64,000 nt of DNA, taken from the sequence record NC_052655.1, one strand, 5' to 3'. Positions 9,084 through 57,940 of this stretch are shown here, piece after piece. Numbering within the stretch: position 1 is the stretch's first letter; the number at the start of each line of letters is the position of its first letter. The notes under the pieces are model-generated. The model did not search any database and had not been told where the DNA came from. It saw nothing but the letters and a program-made list of their open reading frames with translations. Source of the stretch: Escherichia phage alia. Position numbers and translations under genes: made by a program.

Positions 9084-9479
9084 TTATTTATTGTCAGCAC
9101 TTAGTTGTACTTTAATAAGGCAATTAGGGACACCATTGGTATTTCTCAAGCCTACACGTTCAATTTTAACAGTGCCTGTCAAACCATTAAAAGTGGAAAC
9201 AATGTTATTAATGTTTTCATCCTTACTAGTGATATCAAGAATAACTTTATCACTGACATTTTTCAACATACGATCTACAAGCTCTCCCACAAAACCACTG
9301 GTAGTTTGAATGAGAAGGTATAGACAACCATCCTCAAACCACAAATGTTCACCATAAGCATAACCGTATGGTTCTAATTCCGATCCATCTTGAAATTTAA
9401 ACTTAGCAATAGTTTTCGTATAATCATACGCTAAAGCAGAAGGGCATACCCCATAGAGGATATTTTCGTTGTCTTTCAT
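9084..9479 (-). CDS. hypothetical protein
   Basis: Track ORF 9084-9608 overlaps the primase-helicase; start moved to internal Met 'MKDNEN' at 9479. Confidence 0.4.
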   Translation of the reverse strand: MKDNENILYGVCPSALAYDYTKTIAKFKFQDGSELEPYGYAYGEHLWFEDGCLYLLIQTTSGFVGELVDRMLKNVSDKVILDITSKDENINNIVSTFNGLTGTVKIERVGLRNTNGVPNCLIKVQLSADNK

Positions 9480-9489
9480 ATTTTTCTCC

Positions 9490-11262
9490 TTAATAAGAAC
9501 CAGCAGAAATATTTTCTGGGTTACTCGTGTATTGATCGTAATCGTGAAGTGTAGCTGTTTTAATCTCATAGAAGAAACTACCTGCTGCACCAGTCTCTGA
9601 GAACTCACGGTTCTTTAGAATGTAGCAATATGTGCGGTTACGTTCCATAGGATCTTCAGCTTGTTTATCACGCTCCAGCGCAATTGTGATACCAGCACCT
9701 TTAGCAAGGAAGCTACTACCCATTGCATCATCTTCTACAATATGTTCATTACTATTGTTAGAAGACTTTTTAACGTGTGAAATTACAACAATGGTTATTG
9801 CATACTCTTTCATAATGCGTTTGAGCCACGTCGCAAGTTCCTCTTGTTGTGACACGTCCATACCAGAAAGCAAGTCAGAATAAGGGTCGATAACAAGAAT
9901 GGTTACTCCGAAATAAATAATCATTTCCAGAACCTTCTCTTTAATCACATCTACGTTAGCTCCACGATCATCACAAACATAGAAACGTGGTGTTCCATCT
10001 TCTCGTTCGTAAAAATCACGAATCTTTTCTTCATTATCTTTTAAAATCTTTTCCTTCTCTTCTTTTGTTTTACGGTGAAGAGGGATGTGCAAGAATGAAG
10101 ACAGTAAGTTACGAGAATACTTCTTATACGTTGCCTCCAAAGATAAAATACCAAGAGTATGTTCTGGGTGTGCAAGAATAATGTGCTTCGTAATCTCGTT
10201 AACCAACAGTGTCTTACCAATACTTGTTTTTGCAAGTATAACAGTAATTTCTTCTTCTACCAAGCCTCCACCTAACATATTAGAAGCAACACGCATGAAT
10301 GGAGGAAGGGTGATCATTTTAGCTTCCAGGCATTCCAAGGCTGCTTCATACAGTACGTTAGAAGCGTAAACACCAGCAGGTGTGTACAGTTTAGCTTTGA
10401 AAAAGCGATCAATAAAATGATCAATTTTTCCTTCTACTAGTGCCTGGTTAGGATCTTTAACATCCGTTAGTTCCATCACGTAAACTTTATTACGTGGTAA
10501 GATTTTAACACATTTCTCAACTGCTGCACGTCCAGCTTCATCATTATCCATACATAGAACAATCTTTTTAAATTGATCTAAGAATTTATAACGATGTTGA
10601 AGCTGCTTATGCAGAGATGTTTCGCCACAAGTACCAGATACTACAGCAGGAACAGGATATTTACCACCCTTGTTATAATCTTTTAGCATCTGTGTTGCAG
10701 CCAGCATATCGTGTTCACCACCAACGATTAGAATAGTACCGCTGTGGTTACGATATTTAAACTCCCCAAAAAGATCACAATCCTTTCCTGTTTCACCGAT
10801 AGGATGTGAGAAATCTTTTGGATCGATACGTTGTTTATACCCAGCAATATTGTAATCTTTAGTTGTAGGGTATAGTGTTGAAATTACTTCGCCAGTAGCT
10901 TCATCGTACATATAACGTACACCGAAAGGCTTAGAGATATCTTCACGAATACCGCGATAACCTTTTGGATTAGTTCCAGTGCTGGCTTTTAGTTTATCAT
11001 GTACTTCTGGATTAAACTCACTACCCAAGATATCCTCCTCTTCAATTTCTTCGCCGTGTGCATTTAACCATTTTTGATCAGGGATAGTAAAGCCACAAGA
11101 AAAACAATGTGCGCCTCGATGGTCTTCATCGGCATCTAAGCCATATACCATCAAATTGTTTTGTGATCGATCACGCCCTCCTTTCATACAACGAGGACAC
11201 CCAGTATGTCCTTCTTGACTTAGATCAATGTTATACCCATATTTATTTACAACATAAGACAC
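9490..11262 (-). CDS. primase-helicase (T7 gp4-like: zinc ribbon, TOPRIM, DnaB-like helicase)
   Basis: Cys4 element 'CPRCMKGG...CFSCG', TOPRIM-like 'IVLCMDNDEAGRAA', Walker A 'LAKTSIGKT'; 590 aa. Confidence 0.85.
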   Translation of the reverse strand: MSYVVNKYGYNIDLSQEGHTGCPRCMKGGRDRSQNNLMVYGLDADEDHRGAHCFSCGFTIPDQKWLNAHGEEIEEEDILGSEFNPEVHDKLKASTGTNPKGYRGIREDISKPFGVRYMYDEATGEVISTLYPTTKDYNIAGYKQRIDPKDFSHPIGETGKDCDLFGEFKYRNHSGTILIVGGEHDMLAATQMLKDYNKGGKYPVPAVVSGTCGETSLHKQLQHRYKFLDQFKKIVLCMDNDEAGRAAVEKCVKILPRNKVYVMELTDVKDPNQALVEGKIDHFIDRFFKAKLYTPAGVYASNVLYEAALECLEAKMITLPPFMRVASNMLGGGLVEEEITVILAKTSIGKTLLVNEITKHIILAHPEHTLGILSLEATYKKYSRNLLSSFLHIPLHRKTKEEKEKILKDNEEKIRDFYEREDGTPRFYVCDDRGANVDVIKEKVLEMIIYFGVTILVIDPYSDLLSGMDVSQQEELATWLKRIMKEYAITIVVISHVKKSSNNSNEHIVEDDAMGSSFLAKGAGITIALERDKQAEDPMERNRTYCYILKNREFSETGAAGSFFYEIKTATLHDYDQYTSNPENISAGSY

Positions 11263-42818: not shown

Positions 42819-44216
42819 ATGACAGCACCAAAATCATGGGAACAATATAAAGAAGAATTAACACCCCTTGCTAAAAATCACAATATTCAAATCCTGGGTT
42901 ATGTTGGGGAATGGAAAGGGAGCAAGACTAAACTTAAACTATCTTGCCCTGATCATGGAGAGTGGGAAAGTACCGTAATCACTAACTTTAAAACTAGAGG
43001 CGGTAAATGTTGCCCCGATTGCAATGGTCATAGAAAAGTAACAGAAGAAAAGGAATGTATTTCCCTTGTTGATGTTGCTAAAGAAAGAGGGTTTACTTTT
43101 ATAGGTCTTGCCGAGGAGTGGCGAGGTGTACGAACAAAAATTCGCATAATTTGCCCTAAACATGGAGAGTGGAACACCACAAATATTATTAGTTTTAGGA
43201 ATGGACATGGTTGTCCGACATGTGCAAGTAATAAGCCGTTAACATGGGAAACAGAATTACCGATCTTGGAAGAGATAGCACAGAAGAAGGGGTATCAAGT
43301 GTTAGGGTACGTTGGAGAATGGAAAAGAAATAAAACAAAACTTGATTTGTTGTGTCATTGTGGTTATAAATGGGATACTACAAGTATTAACAGTTTTAAA
43401 CGTGGTAGTGGTTGTCCTTTATGTGGGTATAAGAATACAGGTAAGTCACAAACAATATCCGACGATCAACATATTGCAGATTTCTTTTCTACTGGTGTCT
43501 TCCCTGAAGGCACTATCTTCACTAACACAGGAGCACGGGGGAAAGGATGTGGGCATATTATCTGGATGGTTGAATGTCCTGTTTGCTCTCATGATGAATA
43601 TGTTCAAGCAGGTGTTTGCGATGGTAAATTTTACTCTAAAGGATATAACCTTAAACGAGGACACATGCCGTGTCGTTGTGGAAACTATCATTATACAGAA
43701 GACCAGATCACCTACAAAGTGAGAAAGGAAGTAGAGAGTAAAGGGTATATTTGGGTAGGATGGATCAGTAAACCTAGTGCAAAAGGCAAGTTTAAATATT
43801 GGTGCAATAAACACGGGGAGCAAATTGGAAATGCTGATAGTTTGATACATAGGGGAGCTGGGTGTCCACAGTGTGCTGGTCATAGTCAACAGCAATTATA
43901 TATTAATATTGTTAAAGATAATGATATTATAGTTGCTCTTAAGTTTGGTATAGCTAAAGATAGCGATAGACGATTAAACCGTCAAAATAACCATAATATG
44001 TTTTTTATGGAGCGTATTTGTTTATATGATTTTAGTACAACGAAACAGTGTAAGGCTGCTGAAAGAGCTATAAAGAAAAAATTAAAAACTGGTATCTTAA
44101 CAGCAAGAGAGTTGAAAGACGGTTATACAGAAACAGTAAGTGTTTCTGATTTGGAAAATCTTCAAAAAATTATTACACAATATGGTGGCAAATTAGTATA
44201 TAGTAAGGAGGTGTAA
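42819..44216 (+). CDS. Zn-ribbon repeat protein, possible GIY-YIG/T5orf172-like C-terminal domain
   Basis: Four to five tandem ~45-aa repeats of the form 'GYVGEWKG.KTKL.L.CP.HGEW......F..G.GCP.C'; C-terminus 'ALKFGIAKDSDRRLNRQ'; GAGGAG RBS. Confidence 0.45.
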   Translation: MTAPKSWEQYKEELTPLAKNHNIQILGYVGEWKGSKTKLKLSCPDHGEWESTVITNFKTRGGKCCPDCNGHRKVTEEKECISLVDVAKERGFTFIGLAEEWRGVRTKIRIICPKHGEWNTTNIISFRNGHGCPTCASNKPLTWETELPILEEIAQKKGYQVLGYVGEWKRNKTKLDLLCHCGYKWDTTSINSFKRGSGCPLCGYKNTGKSQTISDDQHIADFFSTGVFPEGTIFTNTGARGKGCGHIIWMVECPVCSHDEYVQAGVCDGKFYSKGYNLKRGHMPCRCGNYHYTEDQITYKVRKEVESKGYIWVGWISKPSAKGKFKYWCNKHGEQIGNADSLIHRGAGCPQCAGHSQQQLYINIVKDNDIIVALKFGIAKDSDRRLNRQNNHNMFFMERICLYDFSTTKQCKAAERAIKKKLKTGILTARELKDGYTETVSVSDLENLQKIITQYGGKLVYSKEV

Positions 44217-44768
44217 ATGCGGATTACTGACAAGTATGTATTCTTCTTCTCAGCAAAAGATGAATTTAGCAACTGGTATCTATCATCTTTTATTGAACCT
44301 TTAGCACCCAAGTATAATAATTCTATTACAAATTCTGTTGAATTTACTTGTGTGGAACAATATATGATGTGGAGAAAAGCATGTTTATTTTATGATTACA
44401 ACATTGCATCCTCTATTTTAACCGGAGATCTAAGATATACAGGAGAAAAAGAACAAGCATATTATAAACGACTAGGCAGATTAGTTAAAGATTATGATGA
44501 AGATACCTGGACTTCTTTACGGGAGAAGATTGTCAAGCGTGGTTTGTATCTTAAATACACACAAAATGAAGATCTCAAAAATAAACTTATCGCTTACGCA
44601 GATAAGGAGTTTGTAGAAGCAAGCCCTTATGATTCTATTTATGGTATCAAAATGGGGATGTGGGATCGGGACGTGGAAAATAAGGATTGTTGGAAAGGAC
44701 AAAATCTTTTAGGAAAATGGCATACAGACCTTGCTGTTTATCTAAAAGCACAATCTGATATTTCCTGA
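44217..44768 (+). CDS. NADAR/YbiA-family protein
   Basis: 'FFFSAKDEFSNWYLS', 'EQYMMWRKACLF', 'LGRLVKDYDEDTW', 'KYTQNEDLKNKLI', 'FVEASPYDSIYGIKMG' follow the YbiA/DUF1768 pattern. Confidence 0.65.
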   Translation: MRITDKYVFFFSAKDEFSNWYLSSFIEPLAPKYNNSITNSVEFTCVEQYMMWRKACLFYDYNIASSILTGDLRYTGEKEQAYYKRLGRLVKDYDEDTWTSLREKIVKRGLYLKYTQNEDLKNKLIAYADKEFVEASPYDSIYGIKMGMWDRDVENKDCWKGQNLLGKWHTDLAVYLKAQSDIS

Positions 44769-44983
44769 TATTTTGAAAATTTTTATTTCTATAAAAAGGG
44801 GTGTGGGTTTCATGTACGGAAATTCACCCTCTGCACAGTATATCCAGAGTAAGTAGTATTCTGTACTCTGTTAATAAAGTATTTAATTTGTTTGTTGGAT
44901 TATGGTAGCTGATCTTTAAAAGGCATACTATCTCTTAACTACTACTTATAACAGAACAGTAAAATCGTTTTTATAAAAAGGAC

Positions 44984-45191
44984 AAAATTATTTAAAGTTT
45001 TTACAGATTTTTGGATACAAATTTTGAAAATGAAAAGTTCAAGTTTGGTCAAAATTATTTAAAGTTTTTGTACGTATTTCTATCCAGATTTTGAAAATGA
45101 AAACTTCAATTTTTTAAAAATTCCCCAGTTTATTTAAAGTTTTTTTGCCTTTTTCCGTAGAAAAATCAAAAATGAAAAGTTCAATTTCGTG
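44984..45191. repeat. three tandem ~67-bp direct repeats
   Basis: Units starting near 44984, 45051 and 45129, each '(A)AAATTATTTAAAGTTTTT-(N20-30)-GAAAATGAAAA(G/C)TTCAA'; AT-rich, non-coding. Confidence 0.7.
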
Positions 45192-45208
45192 TTTTTATAG
45201 GTATGCGT

Positions 45209-45319
45209 ATGATAATCATTCTCATTTGTAAATGAGAATCATTATCATTTAATTATGTAAGTGATAATCATTCTCAGTAAGAGAATGAGAATCATTAGCA
45301 AATGAGAATTTTCTCATTT
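45209..45319. promoter_or_regulatory. cluster of three Fur-box-like palindromes
   Basis: 'TGATAATCATTCTCATTTG-TA-AATGAGAATCATTATCA', 'GATAATCATTCTCA...GAGAATGAGAATCATTA' and 'AATGAGAA-TT-TTCTCATT'; core GATAATCATT matches the Fur-box half-site. Confidence 0.45.
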
Positions 45320-45580
45320 AGAGAATAACGCGCAGGGGCGGTGTTTGTCTCGCGCTCCCGTGTCCCCTCGCCATACAATAAGAATAGCATAACCAACAAC
45401 AAAAGCAAGCGATTATTTTTATCTTTACATTTCTTTACAAATTTATTTTAGACGAGCTACCGGCGATCAACCTTCCAACCAGTGCCCCCTGGTATGTTAG
45501 CCCCGCCTTTACGCCGTGGGGGTGGCGCTTCCTCTTCTGTATGTAAAACAGTATAAGCCCGATCCCTGGGCTTGTCAAGA

Positions 45581-45847
45581 TTATTTTTTGTTTTCTTGCC
45601 AGGATAGGACACCTAACCAAAAATACATGTCGCCCCGCGCCCCTGGCGGGATCTTGCTTTCCCCGCCGCCACTGCAAGCCCATAGATAACCATTAGCGAA
45701 CGGATCAAAATGATCTATTTCTTCCACCTTATAATCGCCCAGGTTGAGAACGGTTTCAACCTTTAAGCCCGTTGCGCTTGCTACCTGGTGCACCGTGCCG
45801 CCTTGCCAGCCCAATGAGTGCATGAGATGTAAAGGAGTATTTGTCAT
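45581..45847 (-). CDS. candidate small ORF inside a GC-rich island
   Basis: 88-aa ORF ('MTNTPLHLMHSLGWQGGTVHQV...') in a clearly more GC-rich stretch (about 45330-46100); several overlapping minus-strand ORFs make the coding call uncertain. Confidence 0.3.
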   Translation of the reverse strand: MTNTPLHLMHSLGWQGGTVHQVASATGLKVETVLNLGDYKVEEIDHFDPFANGYLWACSGGGESKIPPGARGDMYFWLGVLSWQENKK

Positions 45848-46217
45848 GGTATCGCCCTTTCTTTGATGTGCGCCCTGGTTGGCGCGGTAGAAAGATAATA
45901 GCCGTTTCCTTTATAGATAGCAAGCAAAAAAGAAATGAAAAAAGATTAAAAAAATGGTTGACGTTCCTCACCTGGTAGCGTAGTATTCATCTTGTCGAGG
46001 GGGGCGAGGCACAACGACAATAAACAAAAGGAGGGCGCAATGTAGGACGGGCAAAGGTGAGGATCTCCACAATCCACCGTCACAATAACATTACTTATAA
46101 AAGGTTGATAACGATGATCAAGAAAGAAAACAGCTTGACGGTTGGAACGATTAACGCTATCATTCTTGCCGTTCCATTTTGGGTTGTAGTAGCGGTTATT
46201 ATTTTTAAAAAATATTC

Positions 46218-46275
46218 TTGACAACGTTTTTTAATCTGATAAGATGTATCACATAGGGCGGCAATAGTGCCGCTC
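46218..46275 (+). promoter_or_regulatory. promoter + 5' stem-loop module
   Basis: TTGACA-N16-TAAGAT followed by 'CACATAGGGCGGCAATAGTGCCGCTC' (stem GCGGCA/TGCCGC), 22 nt upstream of the ATG. Confidence 0.6.
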
Positions 46276-46297
46276 ATAACAGAAGAGAGAAATAATC

Positions 46298-46570
46298 ATG
46301 GCATCATATAGCGCATCAATGATTGTAATGGGTATCACTGGTAAACCTATGCGCGGTGGCGGATCTTTCGCTAATATTAATATTGATGGACGTTTATCCC
46401 TGGACGCAGCGATCACAGTGGCACGGGAAACGTTTAAAAAAGAATGTAATTTCAATAAACAAGATTATCTCGGCTTCGTTATTGAAAAAACCGCGCGCTT
46501 TGTTGATTATAAAAGCCCGAAAATGATCGACACTACACTAAAGGCGCAAGATGTAGCTTTTTTGCTTTAA
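46298..46570 (+). CDS. hypothetical small protein (cassette gene)
   Basis: 90 aa; RBS GAGAGA. Confidence 0.5.
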   Translation: MASYSASMIVMGITGKPMRGGGSFANINIDGRLSLDAAITVARETFKKECNFNKQDYLGFVIEKTARFVDYKSPKMIDTTLKAQDVAFLL

Positions 46571-56120: not shown

Positions 56121-56136
56121 ATAACATTTCATACAA

Positions 56137-56162
56137 GGGCGCTTATTGCGCCCTTTCTTTTT
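56137..56162 (+). terminator. intrinsic terminator (GGGCGC-ttatt-GCGCCC-TTTCTTTTT)
   Basis: Third copy of the GGGCGC/GCGCCC stem; closes the cassette region. Confidence 0.65.
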
Positions 56163-56364
56163 ACCTAAATAAAGATGATAGCTTTTACCTATCAAAAACG
56201 TTCACCGAAAAAAGTGAATAGATCGCGGTATCGAGCTAATCAAGGAGCAGATGAACAACCATACCATGAAGATCATAAGGCGCTTACAGCGTGTTTTAGA
56301 CCGCTTATTTTTAATTTCTTCATGTAACTATCTGGCAAAAACAGCCTTTTTCTTGTCTTTCCTC

Positions 56365-56445
56365 TTAAATGATAATCATTCTTATTTATAGCTGATTATT
56401 TATGCAATAAACTGCATAATGCAATAATGATAATCATTCTTAACT
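56365..56445. promoter_or_regulatory. Fur-box-like repeats
   Basis: Two copies of 'AATGATAATCATTCTTA' separated by about 40 nt. Confidence 0.4.
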
Positions 56446-56819
56446 TAAGACCATCTAACTTATAAAATAATAAGTTATCTAACTAAATTAAAGCTAATTA
56501 TCTTACTTTTATTTATAACATACTGTTACTATCTTATTGATAACCTTATATTAAACAACAATAATCAATGTAAATCATTACTAAGCTAACTATAATCTAT
56601 CTAACCCTTAAAACTACAATTATAATCTATCAAATTGTTGCACAAAGTAACTATTAAATTGTTAGTAACATTGCTAAATAATTAATATCCTATCTATTTA
56701 TGATCTAATCTTTACCTCCCTATCTATTACCTAAATAACCATTTCATGTGGTAATCATTTCATACAATAACTATAACAAGAAATATAATTCGCAAGCGTA
56801 TCATTAGCAGCCTATGCCG

Positions 56820-56985
56820 GACACATAGGCGGCTAATAATAACGCAACTACACACCCCACATAATAACCATCACCGATAGTTATTATTTGTGCTTATGTA
56901 GCTTGCAACAATTGCAAGCGCAACAATATACATGGTATATTGTATCCCTTACATTGTTGCGGTGCGTTATTATTAGCTAATGTTT
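56820..56985. repeat. inverted repeats around a TTGCAA-caa-TTGCAA palindrome
   Basis: 'GCTAATAATAACGCA' with its reverse complement 'GCGTTATTATTAGC' about 130 nt away; central 'GCTTGCAA-caa-TTGCAAGC'; hairpin 'GCCTATG-ccggaca-CATAGGC'. Confidence 0.5.
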
Positions 56986-57282
56986 AGAACATTGGCTATA
57001 ATATAAGCTAAGTAATAAGCTAGTCAATAATAAACATAATGAATAATGACATTAATGATCATAATGCGCCACCCTCCAGGGGGCGCTATGTGAACACAAA
57101 GAAATCATTCTTGTCAAGAAAAATATCACCCTATTGCGCAAAATTATTTATATCTGAATAGATGATTTTTCATACTATTGCCCCCTATAACATACCTCAT
57201 TTGTTGAGCCTACTTTCTTAAAAGCGCAATAAAGTAGAATTATCTTGATTTTTAGTCGGTTTTATAGTACAGAAAGTATGCA

Positions 57283-57298
57283 AATGATAATCATTATC
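57283..57298. promoter_or_regulatory. near-consensus Fur box
   Basis: 'AATGATAATCATTATC' matches 16 of 19 positions of GATAATGATAATCATTATC. Confidence 0.45.
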
Positions 57299-57462
57299 AG
57301 CTATCCTCCAGGGTGGCACTATTTCACGCCAGATCATTTCATTTGGCAAGGTGTATATAGATGTTTAGAAATGCCAAGCCATTGATTTACTTAGAATTTA
57401 TCTGTTTTGTTGTGAGTAGTACCTTTCTTGCTTAGAAAATAATCAAAAGTCTTATAAGTCAT

Positions 57463-57498
57463 TGAATGATAATGCAAATGATAATTATTCTCATTGAT
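57463..57498. promoter_or_regulatory. Fur-box-like hexamer array
   Basis: 'TGAATGATAATGCAAATGATAATTATTCTCATTGAT'. Confidence 0.4.
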
Positions 57499-57940
57499 AT
57501 TTGAGGGGGACGGTCGGCAGAAATCGGGGGGCGCTGAAAATCGCGTTAAGCACCTCTCGCAAGCGAGCAGTATTTTGCGGCAAGTTATTGATATTATTGA
57601 CTTTACGCTTATGAAAAGGGGTGTGTCGAAATAAATCGGGTATACCGGAAAATTTTTTGTGGCATAGATATTTATTTGTCTATATTATGTACAAAGGGGT
57701 GTGTTAAAAATAATAGGTATATATAGAATAATTGATAGGGAAATCCTATACTAAATCCTTCATTAATGATGTTCCTATGTTGCTGTTCTTGTAACAGATG
57801 AAAAGACGCTGTATGATGTGTAGCATGAGACGTAAATTTATAAGATGCAAATAATGCTTGCATTGAATAGAAATGTCTGTACACTGTGTTCCATAAGATA
57901 TGCAATATCGCGCATAACAAACTACTAATGAGAGGTGTAA

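Follow-up and report, generated by a model that had tools for sequence, protein, structure and literature searches.

Positions 44984–45191 of the Escherichia phage alia sequence (NC_052655.1; the window, 64,000 nt of one strand, numbered from its first letter) contain three tandem direct repeats in non-coding DNA. The window comes from a phi92-like E. coli myophage (Justusliebigvirus, Stephanstirmvirinae). The array formed by the repeats is a cis-acting DNA site, not a gene, and by its sequence it is best filed with iterons or protein-binding arrays. We tentatively read it as a transcription-activated replication origin marked by iteron-like protein-binding sites. An origin with iterons was among the roles put forward in an earlier note made from the letters alone, and it is the best single guess, given the uniqueness of the array, lineage-specific boxes held in a three-unit frame, low duplex stability, and a conserved promoter, although no initiator gene was found in this lineage.

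Unit 1 (44984–45050) opens with box A and its T-run (TTATTTAAAGTTTTT, 44988–45002) and carries the 3′ block AAAATGAAAAGTTCAA at 45027–45042. In unit 2 (45051–45125), box A is at 45055–45069 and the 3′ block, AAAATGAAAACTTCAA, at 45094–45109, and the unit ends in the junction TTTTTTAAAAATT. Unit 3 (45126–45191) has box A at 45130–45144 and the 3′ block at 45169–45184. The sequence TTATTTAAAGTTTTT is exact at 44988, 45055, and 45130, with no further exact copy in the window; AAAATGAAAASTTCAA is exact at 45027, 45094, and 45169, with no other match in the window at two mismatches or fewer. The 3′ block has the form AAAATGAAAA(G/C)TTCAA and starts exactly 39 bp past the start of box A in all three units. 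The earlier note had described units of ∼67 bp with conserved 5′ and 3′ blocks. The three units and both blocks are real, but the third unit is spaced by 75 bp, not 67, and the leading G of the 3′ block is lost in unit 3 (CAAAAATGAAAAGTTCAA). A repeat search returns three copies with spacings of 67 and 75 bp, the second and third being 73% and 71% identical to the first. Tandem Repeats Finder gives a period of 67 over 44983–45113 (score 185) with two copies only, because the third unit is offset by 75 bp. Without gaps, 42 of 63 columns are common to the three units, against 18.4 ± 1.1 (maximum 22) in 200 dinucleotide-preserving shuffles of the same AT-rich non-coding stretch, and the direct repeats are borne out at these coordinates, with an identity beyond that expected for AT-rich DNA.

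The search for the unit elsewhere in the genome, proposed at the outset, gives the same answer at both scales. EmilieFrey, a close relative with a complete genome of 146,666 bp, has three copies of the bipartite unit TATTTAAA-N30-AAAANNRAAA, all at this locus, and no further copy is present in the window. The region had also been called free of open reading frames (ORFs), which holds apart from one 36-codon ORF starting with TTG on the minus strand (44942–45052), without a counterpart in other lineages. Mini-ORFs that would start from each 3′ block (ATG AAA AGT TCA...) were rejected: they have no Shine–Dalgarno sequence, and the ATG is missing in the units of the Klebsiella phage and Phapecoctavirus. 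By eye, neither an IHF nor a sigma-54 consensus is kept between units.

Variation was counted across seven Justusliebigvirus genomes. Box A is invariant (0/45 sites), as is the 3′ block (0/48), while 4/72 sites vary in the unit middles and 2/52 in the linkers, or 6/217 over the whole array. The non-coding left flank varies at 27/215 sites (12.6%) and the Fur-like region on the right at 13/116. The array is under purifying selection. The genomes read directly have three units each, and BLAST matches span the region fully, with no sign of expansion or contraction. The statement that this is not a CRISPR array is also correct, with three units only, conserved blocks of 15–16 nt within units of 67–75 bp, and middles nearly invariant between strains; there are no cas genes among the annotated genes of EmilieFrey, although no search aimed at them was made. 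A plasmid or chromosomal relative was sought as well. The matches in plasmids are confined to Fur-like boxes of Moraxella plasmids, and none occur in 5,426 E. coli genomes.

Homologous regions were fetched with a conserved 16-mer anchor from the neighboring GC-rich block and by BLAST of that block. Tandem units of 63–78 bp are found at the same place in 13 of the 14 enterobacterial rV5-like lineages examined. They stand directly left of the Fur-like palindromes in Justusliebigvirus, Phapecoctavirus tuntematon, Klebsiella phage phi1_175008, an IMG/VR relative, the PVP-SE1 group, EC152, Mydo, Av-05, Kashira, phiTE, CR3, A73, and Henunavirus. Most lineages have three units; A73 and phiTE have four copies of the box each, and in tuntematon (where the middle unit is degenerate) and Kashira two units each are recognized by pattern. 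The opening box of 10–12 bp is specific to the lineage. In Stephanstirmvirinae it is TTATTTAAA(G/C) (TTATTTAAAS); in Seuna-, Mydo-, Avuna-, and Certrevirus (Type 2 units, as opposed to the Type 1 units of the window) it is GTTCTCGATCGA or GGTCTCGATCGA, at times as the perfect palindrome TCTCGATCGAGA; in A73 and Henunavirus it is GAACTTGAGRGG. After each box come T-runs of the TTTTC type and a common core resembling TTTTSAAAAYG, and extra partial boxes are present in places (GGTCTCGG, GAACTTGAGC). The spacings between units differ (67/75, 67/77, 75/67, 74/71, 78/63, 74/67), while the distance from the first to the third stays at 138–148 bp everywhere (141–148 by script; 138–142 by hand for tuntematon and the Klebsiella phage). 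Boxes that agree inside one genome but differ from one genome to the next, in a frame that stays fixed, are as expected for sites co-evolving with a dedicated protein, and boxes that are perfect palindromes (TCTCGATCGAGA) are as expected for dimeric helix–turn–helix binders. The architecture of the array, judged from these comparisons, is much older than its sequence.

On its right the array adjoins a cluster of Fur-box-like inverted repeats (TGATAATCATTCTCA and variants, 45205–45320), and the placement of the repeats between the NADAR gene (44217–44768) and these palindromes, as given earlier, is correct. The E. coli Fur 7-1-7 motif is TGATAATnATTATCA. The palindromes of the window are one or two positions off this motif (TGATAATCATTCTCA has one mismatch), and the window has 12 such sites against 0.61 expected, further ones lying at 56370–56444, 57283–57301, and 57477–57495. 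They could be Fur operators or Fur decoys. Beyond them is a conserved non-coding block of ∼215 nt (45327–45541) with conserved secondary structure, present in 244 phage records from Stephanstirmvirinae, Vequintavirinae, and beyond. Its core occurs even in Aeromonas Plateaulakevirus, and the Aeromonas phages have this core with neither the array nor the palindromes. On an alignment of 12 lineages, 92.5% of cells are paired in a plus-strand structure specified by the analyst on the basis of an RNAalifold consensus, against at most 53% in slid controls. Many changes in the block are from U-G to U-A or C-G and compatible with the plus strand only; the fold is not assigned to one strand, because the minus strand also shows some covariation. 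With convergent promoters on its two sides, the block probably represents a phage RNA not described before. Searched against Rfam with gathering thresholds (whole window) and at E ≤ 5 (44700–46400), neither the array nor the block has a match; chance matches alone fall on the palindromes. A tRNA scan found none.

The leftward promoter of this pair is a sigma-70 promoter (TTGACA-17-TATACT, 45550–45578, minus strand; 11 of 12 matches) with an A-rich, UP-like run upstream, and it points through the block and the palindromes into the array. For each of the 14 lineages a script picked a sigma-70-like site at this position, and in 12 an A-rich run precedes the −35; the picks for CR3 and the window are not the best sites by eye. 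The promoter overlaps the hairpin that ends a small minus-strand gene (45581–45847). In the other direction, a candidate −10 (GAGAAT, 45321–45326, plus strand) would have the last Fur-like palindrome as its spacer, and in Vequintavirinae the corresponding candidate reads TTGAAT-[palindrome]-cAGAAT or TAGAAT. The block begins just past this −10. From these positions, the array is downstream of a strong leftward promoter and upstream of a rightward one that is possibly gated by Fur. Nearly every lineage has the array, the palindromes, and the block together.

How the array would work can be put as follows. The three units would be equivalent docking sites for one sequence-specific DNA-binding protein, each consisting of a 10–12-bp recognition box followed by T- and A-tracts, in a frame of ∼142 bp, and together they would form a bent nucleoprotein complex on easily melted DNA. 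The protein, which is probably encoded by the phage, would load on the three boxes and mark the origin of phage replication. Transcription from the leftward promoter (45578–45550) would cross the structured, G-rich block and the palindromes into the array, where it would help to open the repeats or prime DNA synthesis. Binding, the kind of protein, and the role in replication are all things that we infer from sequence.

The origin of phage lambda is a precedent, with palindromic iterons, sequence-induced curvature, and transcriptional activation. Like the array, lambda ori is a unique locus of direct repeats, some of its boxes with dyad symmetry, with bending by A/T-tracts and easily melted DNA; a promoter drives transcription towards the site, and related phages have different boxes in the same frame. 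On the other hand, the four iterons of lambda, bound by the O protein and activated from pR, are 18–19 bp long, ∼20–24 bp apart, and inside the initiator gene, whereas the three units here are 63–78 bp apart in a non-coding region and have no initiator assigned to them. The T7 primary origin, T4 oriF and oriG, and ColE1 RNA II share with the array a promoter followed by an AT-rich stretch that opens easily. The transcript that would enter the array is G-rich and structured, which likens it to those of transcript-primed origins, and the replisome genes of the phage are annotated as T7-type (a family A polymerase and a primase-helicase); however, such origins need no repeated recognition boxes, and the analogy is drawn from sequence. 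The twelve 43-bp tandem repeats of F plasmid sopC, with one SopB site each, also combine long units with one short motif per unit. That locus is a plasmid partition centromere, and it is not evident why a strictly lytic phage would need one; near the array, no ParB-like gene was noticed.

As in iteron origins, several direct repeats stand at a single locus, with AT-rich, easily unwound DNA in or next to them: by nearest-neighbor energies, the array is among the three or four least stable stretches of 100–200 bp in the genome (z ∼3.2–3.5). Units 2–3 are the most curved 105-bp segment of the 146.7-kb EmilieFrey genome, with an end-to-end/contour ratio of 0.742 against 0.954 ± 0.029 in a wedge model with Bolshoy–Trifonov parameters, checked only on a synthetic A-tract control.

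Several observations count against an origin at this place. A replication initiator was found neither beside the array nor anywhere in the lineage of the window. PVP-SE1 gp213 (NC_016071, 131798–132076), a 92-amino-acid winged-helix protein with HTH_36 and DnaD_N domains and the PHROG label “replication initiation protein,” has its gene 4–5 kb from the array, next to a T5orf172 endonuclease gene, and was detected in Seunavirus and Mydovirus only; by tblastn there is no homolog in EmilieFrey or the window. The protein is a possible binder of boxes of the GTTCTCGATCGA type. As the box-binding protein of the window's own lineage it was rejected, being confined to those two genera. The units are 63–78 bp apart, against ∼20 bp in classical iterons. 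DnaA boxes were considered and dropped, the candidates in units 1 and 2 matching 7/9 by eye and varying between close strains (variable sites 45015 and 45082). In only 6 of the 14 lineages does curvature peak at the array or next to it, so that this property belongs to the window's lineage and is not universal. One lineage, FBKp34, has two different repeats ∼190 bp apart and no three-unit array. GC skew tracks gene orientation and is uninformative, and in rV5 a skew analysis gave only changes linked to transcription (PMC3606486). Finally, a second non-coding region has at 56371–56776 (∼400 bp) a broader and even less stable segment, the least stable DNA of the genome, which is therefore an equally good candidate for unwinding. 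This region (56121–57940, 1.8 kb) has Fur-like boxes, several short direct repeats, and four TATCTAW motifs, and is by its sequence an alternative candidate for the origin. Because these weak points (the initiator, the unit length, the competing AT-rich region, and the replication data) are serious, the assignment of the array as an origin is kept tentative.

The main rival reads the same layout with no role in replication. The boxes might bind a dedicated phage regulator, or build a bent structure upstream, and with Fur control the convergent promoters and the ∼215-nt RNA; we regard this as possible, though doubtful. The candidate promoter with its palindromic spacer directly downstream of the array, the start of the block just after the −10, the fold of the block with its plus-strand-only changes, and the joint inheritance of the three elements all fit, and bent AT-rich DNA is common upstream of promoters. 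However, the array of the window stops at least 110 bp short of the candidate promoter, a long way for an activator of sigma-70 promoters, and Stephanstirmvirinae have a poor candidate −35. It would be unusual for a regulator to have only one target locus in 146 kb, and the Aeromonas phages keep the core of the block without array or palindromes. Still less probable is that each box replaces a −35 and is read by a phage activator or a sigma-like factor, with a weak −10-like TAnnnT ∼18–19 bp downstream, so that the array would be three tandem factor-dependent promoters transcribing rightward into the conserved RNA. T7 has three tandem early promoters, A1 to A3. Type 2 units do have TATTTT, TATTCT, or TATTAT at a fixed distance from the box, the right half of which (TCGAGA or TCGAGT) falls at the −35 position; in Type 1 units, however, the position of the −10-like element shifts and its final T is missing, and the sequence in Mydo and Av-05 is TATTTG. 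A class of promoters would recur, but the genome has no box A outside the array. The tandem promoters suggested earlier are disfavored in their plain sigma-70 form too. No plus-strand match lies within 44984–45191, the sole promoter-like match in the units being a weak one on the minus strand of unit 2 (TAGAAA-17-AATAAT, 9/12), and the real early promoters a few hundred base pairs to the right are near-consensus (TTGACG-17-TAGTAT and TTGACA-16-TAAGAT). In addition, E. coli phages with the same host RNA polymerase have different boxes (TTATTTAAAG in the window, GAACTTGAGRGG in A73), which argues against sigma-70 recognition.

A packaging signal, also among the early suggestions, would have the boxes bind the small terminase subunit and mark the start of headful packaging. 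We find this unlikely. Lambda cosB (R3-I1-R2-R1) and the pac sites of SPP1 and P1 are similar in having three repeated elements and a bend over ∼120–150 bp, with a specificity that differs between related phages, and Type 2 units have two GATC sites each, like P1 pac, but Type 1 units have none. Relatives are reported to be terminally redundant and circularly permuted (PMC3475682, PMC3606486). About 6 of the ∼175 GenBank records listed start within 600 bp of the array, against ∼1.4 expected. Two of those records, however, are assemblies broken inside the repeats, and the starts scatter over 1.1 kb. Record PQ002170 starts at the edge of the array and has two units only, one having collapsed, with an 80-bp terminal overlap mislabeled attL/attR; that of EC152 (PP681140.1) is cut inside unit 1. 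The clustering arises at least in part because short-read assemblies break in repeats, and no positive evidence for packaging is left. (PQ002170.1 is filed under Demerecviridae though it is PVP-SE1-like.) In EmilieFrey, ∼75 kb separate the locus from the large terminase gene, and no small subunit is annotated. Nor would one expect a pac site to be surrounded by strong convergent promoters, Fur-like boxes, and a structured RNA. Least probable, to the point of being hardly credible, is that the repeats act as RNA modules within a long non-coding leftward transcript, as a protein sponge or as an antitoxin mimic like the pseudo-ToxI of phiTE. The strong promoter aimed into the array would suit such a role, and phiTE uses expandable RNA repeats against ToxIN (PMC3475682). 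Against it, the array of the window has no fold signal on either strand (minimum free energy z-scores of +0.3 and +0.07), the units are of 63–78 nt and not 34–45, no toxin gene adjoins, and the copy number is steady at three in the genomes read directly, with BLAST coverage that shows no expansion or contraction. Identity with the pseudo-ToxI locus itself was rejected, the escape locus of phiTE being at 106.7 kb and its copy of the present module at 39.6 kb, 67 kb apart.

The origin reading can be extended to the whole module. The array, the palindromes, the convergently transcribed block, and the leftward promoter may be one conserved switch that makes the start of replication, or an early RNA program, depend on host iron status. 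Transcription into a phage-specific iteron origin would then be gated by Fur sitting between the promoter and the array. We consider this improbable, though not negligibly so. Phage T5 offers a comparison. Its “injection stop” Repeat Region 3 (AY587007, 9194–10409) shares Fur-box-like palindromes (AAATGAGAATCATTATCATT) in a long, conserved untranslated region rich in direct repeats, and T5-like phages match only the palindrome part of the module (9468–9640 of AY587007 in T5). These palindromes are the “direct repeat C” and “palindrome E-I” of the untranslated region, preceded by paired DnaA boxes and followed by a 7.9% nick (10.1101/866236). As in the window, protein-binding boxes form an array just left of the palindromes; in T5, however, they are paired DnaA boxes and the region is in the terminal repeat. 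A Fur-like palindrome module with flanking arrays of protein-binding boxes is thus common to two unrelated groups of virulent coliphages.

The 1.6 kb around the array is 96–98% identical to ∼50 phi92-like E. coli myophages, the top match being phage Nernie (98.4%). Of the five records labeled as Campylobacter jejuni phages, four are among the matches listed (the “Campylobacter phage” records MG065645, MG065689, MG065656, and MG065650), and three of these are ∼97–99% identical to E. coli phi92-like phages over the region; the host labels are probably wrong, or the samples contaminated. In the annotated relative EmilieFrey, the locus is within a 30-kb block of small plus-strand genes without assigned function, between two large minus-strand blocks of DNA-metabolism genes. 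The phage also encodes iron-dependent ribonucleotide reductases. A few GenBank records label the first two units as an anonymous “repeat_region,” and the phi92 record has no annotation at the array.

The array occupies a gap (44769–46297) with short ORFs only, followed on the right by a run of small genes. Its neighbors encode a NADAR protein, a CapR/T5orf172 endonuclease, an AAA ATPase, and proteins of unassigned function. The NADAR/YbiA-like gene on the left matches Pfam NADAR with E = 1.9e-36. Before it, at 42819–44216, is the gene of a 465-amino-acid protein that combines five CapR-homology zinc-finger repeats with a T5orf172 domain (PHROG “endonuclease”), which looks like an insert of the homing-endonuclease type; its length varies among close relatives (1173–1191 bp in inny and phi92, 978 bp in EmilieFrey). 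The 3′ end of the NADAR gene has two copies of CTGATATTT(C/T) (44755–44773, plus strand; period 10, 100% match). In Vequintavirinae, two to four copies of TGATATTT(G/C) stand at the same relative place, and in both subfamilies the gene bordering the control region on the left carries two to four of these repeats at its 3′ end. The CTGATATTT/TGATATTT repeats are possibly a second set of binding sites of the same control region, their membership being uncertain. The sequence AAAGGGGTGTG occurs three times in the window (44795–44805, 57615–57625, and 57693–57703), only in the two large non-coding regions. It was rejected as a terminator: on the minus strand the hairpin at 44797–44835 is weak, and the remaining two copies form none. 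To the right, the small minus-strand gene at 45581–45847 has no Pfam match, a PHROG of unassigned function, and no significant sequence match in the PDB (best E 0.22), and a single-sequence AlphaFold model is uninformative (predicted local distance difference test score of 35.5).

The rV5 genome paper (PMC3606486) and literature searches gave no known origin, packaging site, or early control region for the group, and in the literature on rV5-like origins and promoters, phage Fur boxes, and transcriptomes we found no account of the array. Because it is unique, under purifying selection, and conserved in architecture across two subfamilies, the array is a concrete and testable candidate cis-element (origin, packaging, or early control) of this phage group. 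With their broad host range, the phi92-, phAPEC8-, rV5-, and PVP-SE1-like phages are candidates for use in therapy and biocontrol; the array breaks short-read assemblies, and phage engineers would be advised against disrupting it. If the module does link phage development to iron sensing by the host, it would be a new kind of host–phage coupling, and, as the palindrome module is common to both, the iron switch could also explain the “injection stop” puzzle of T5.

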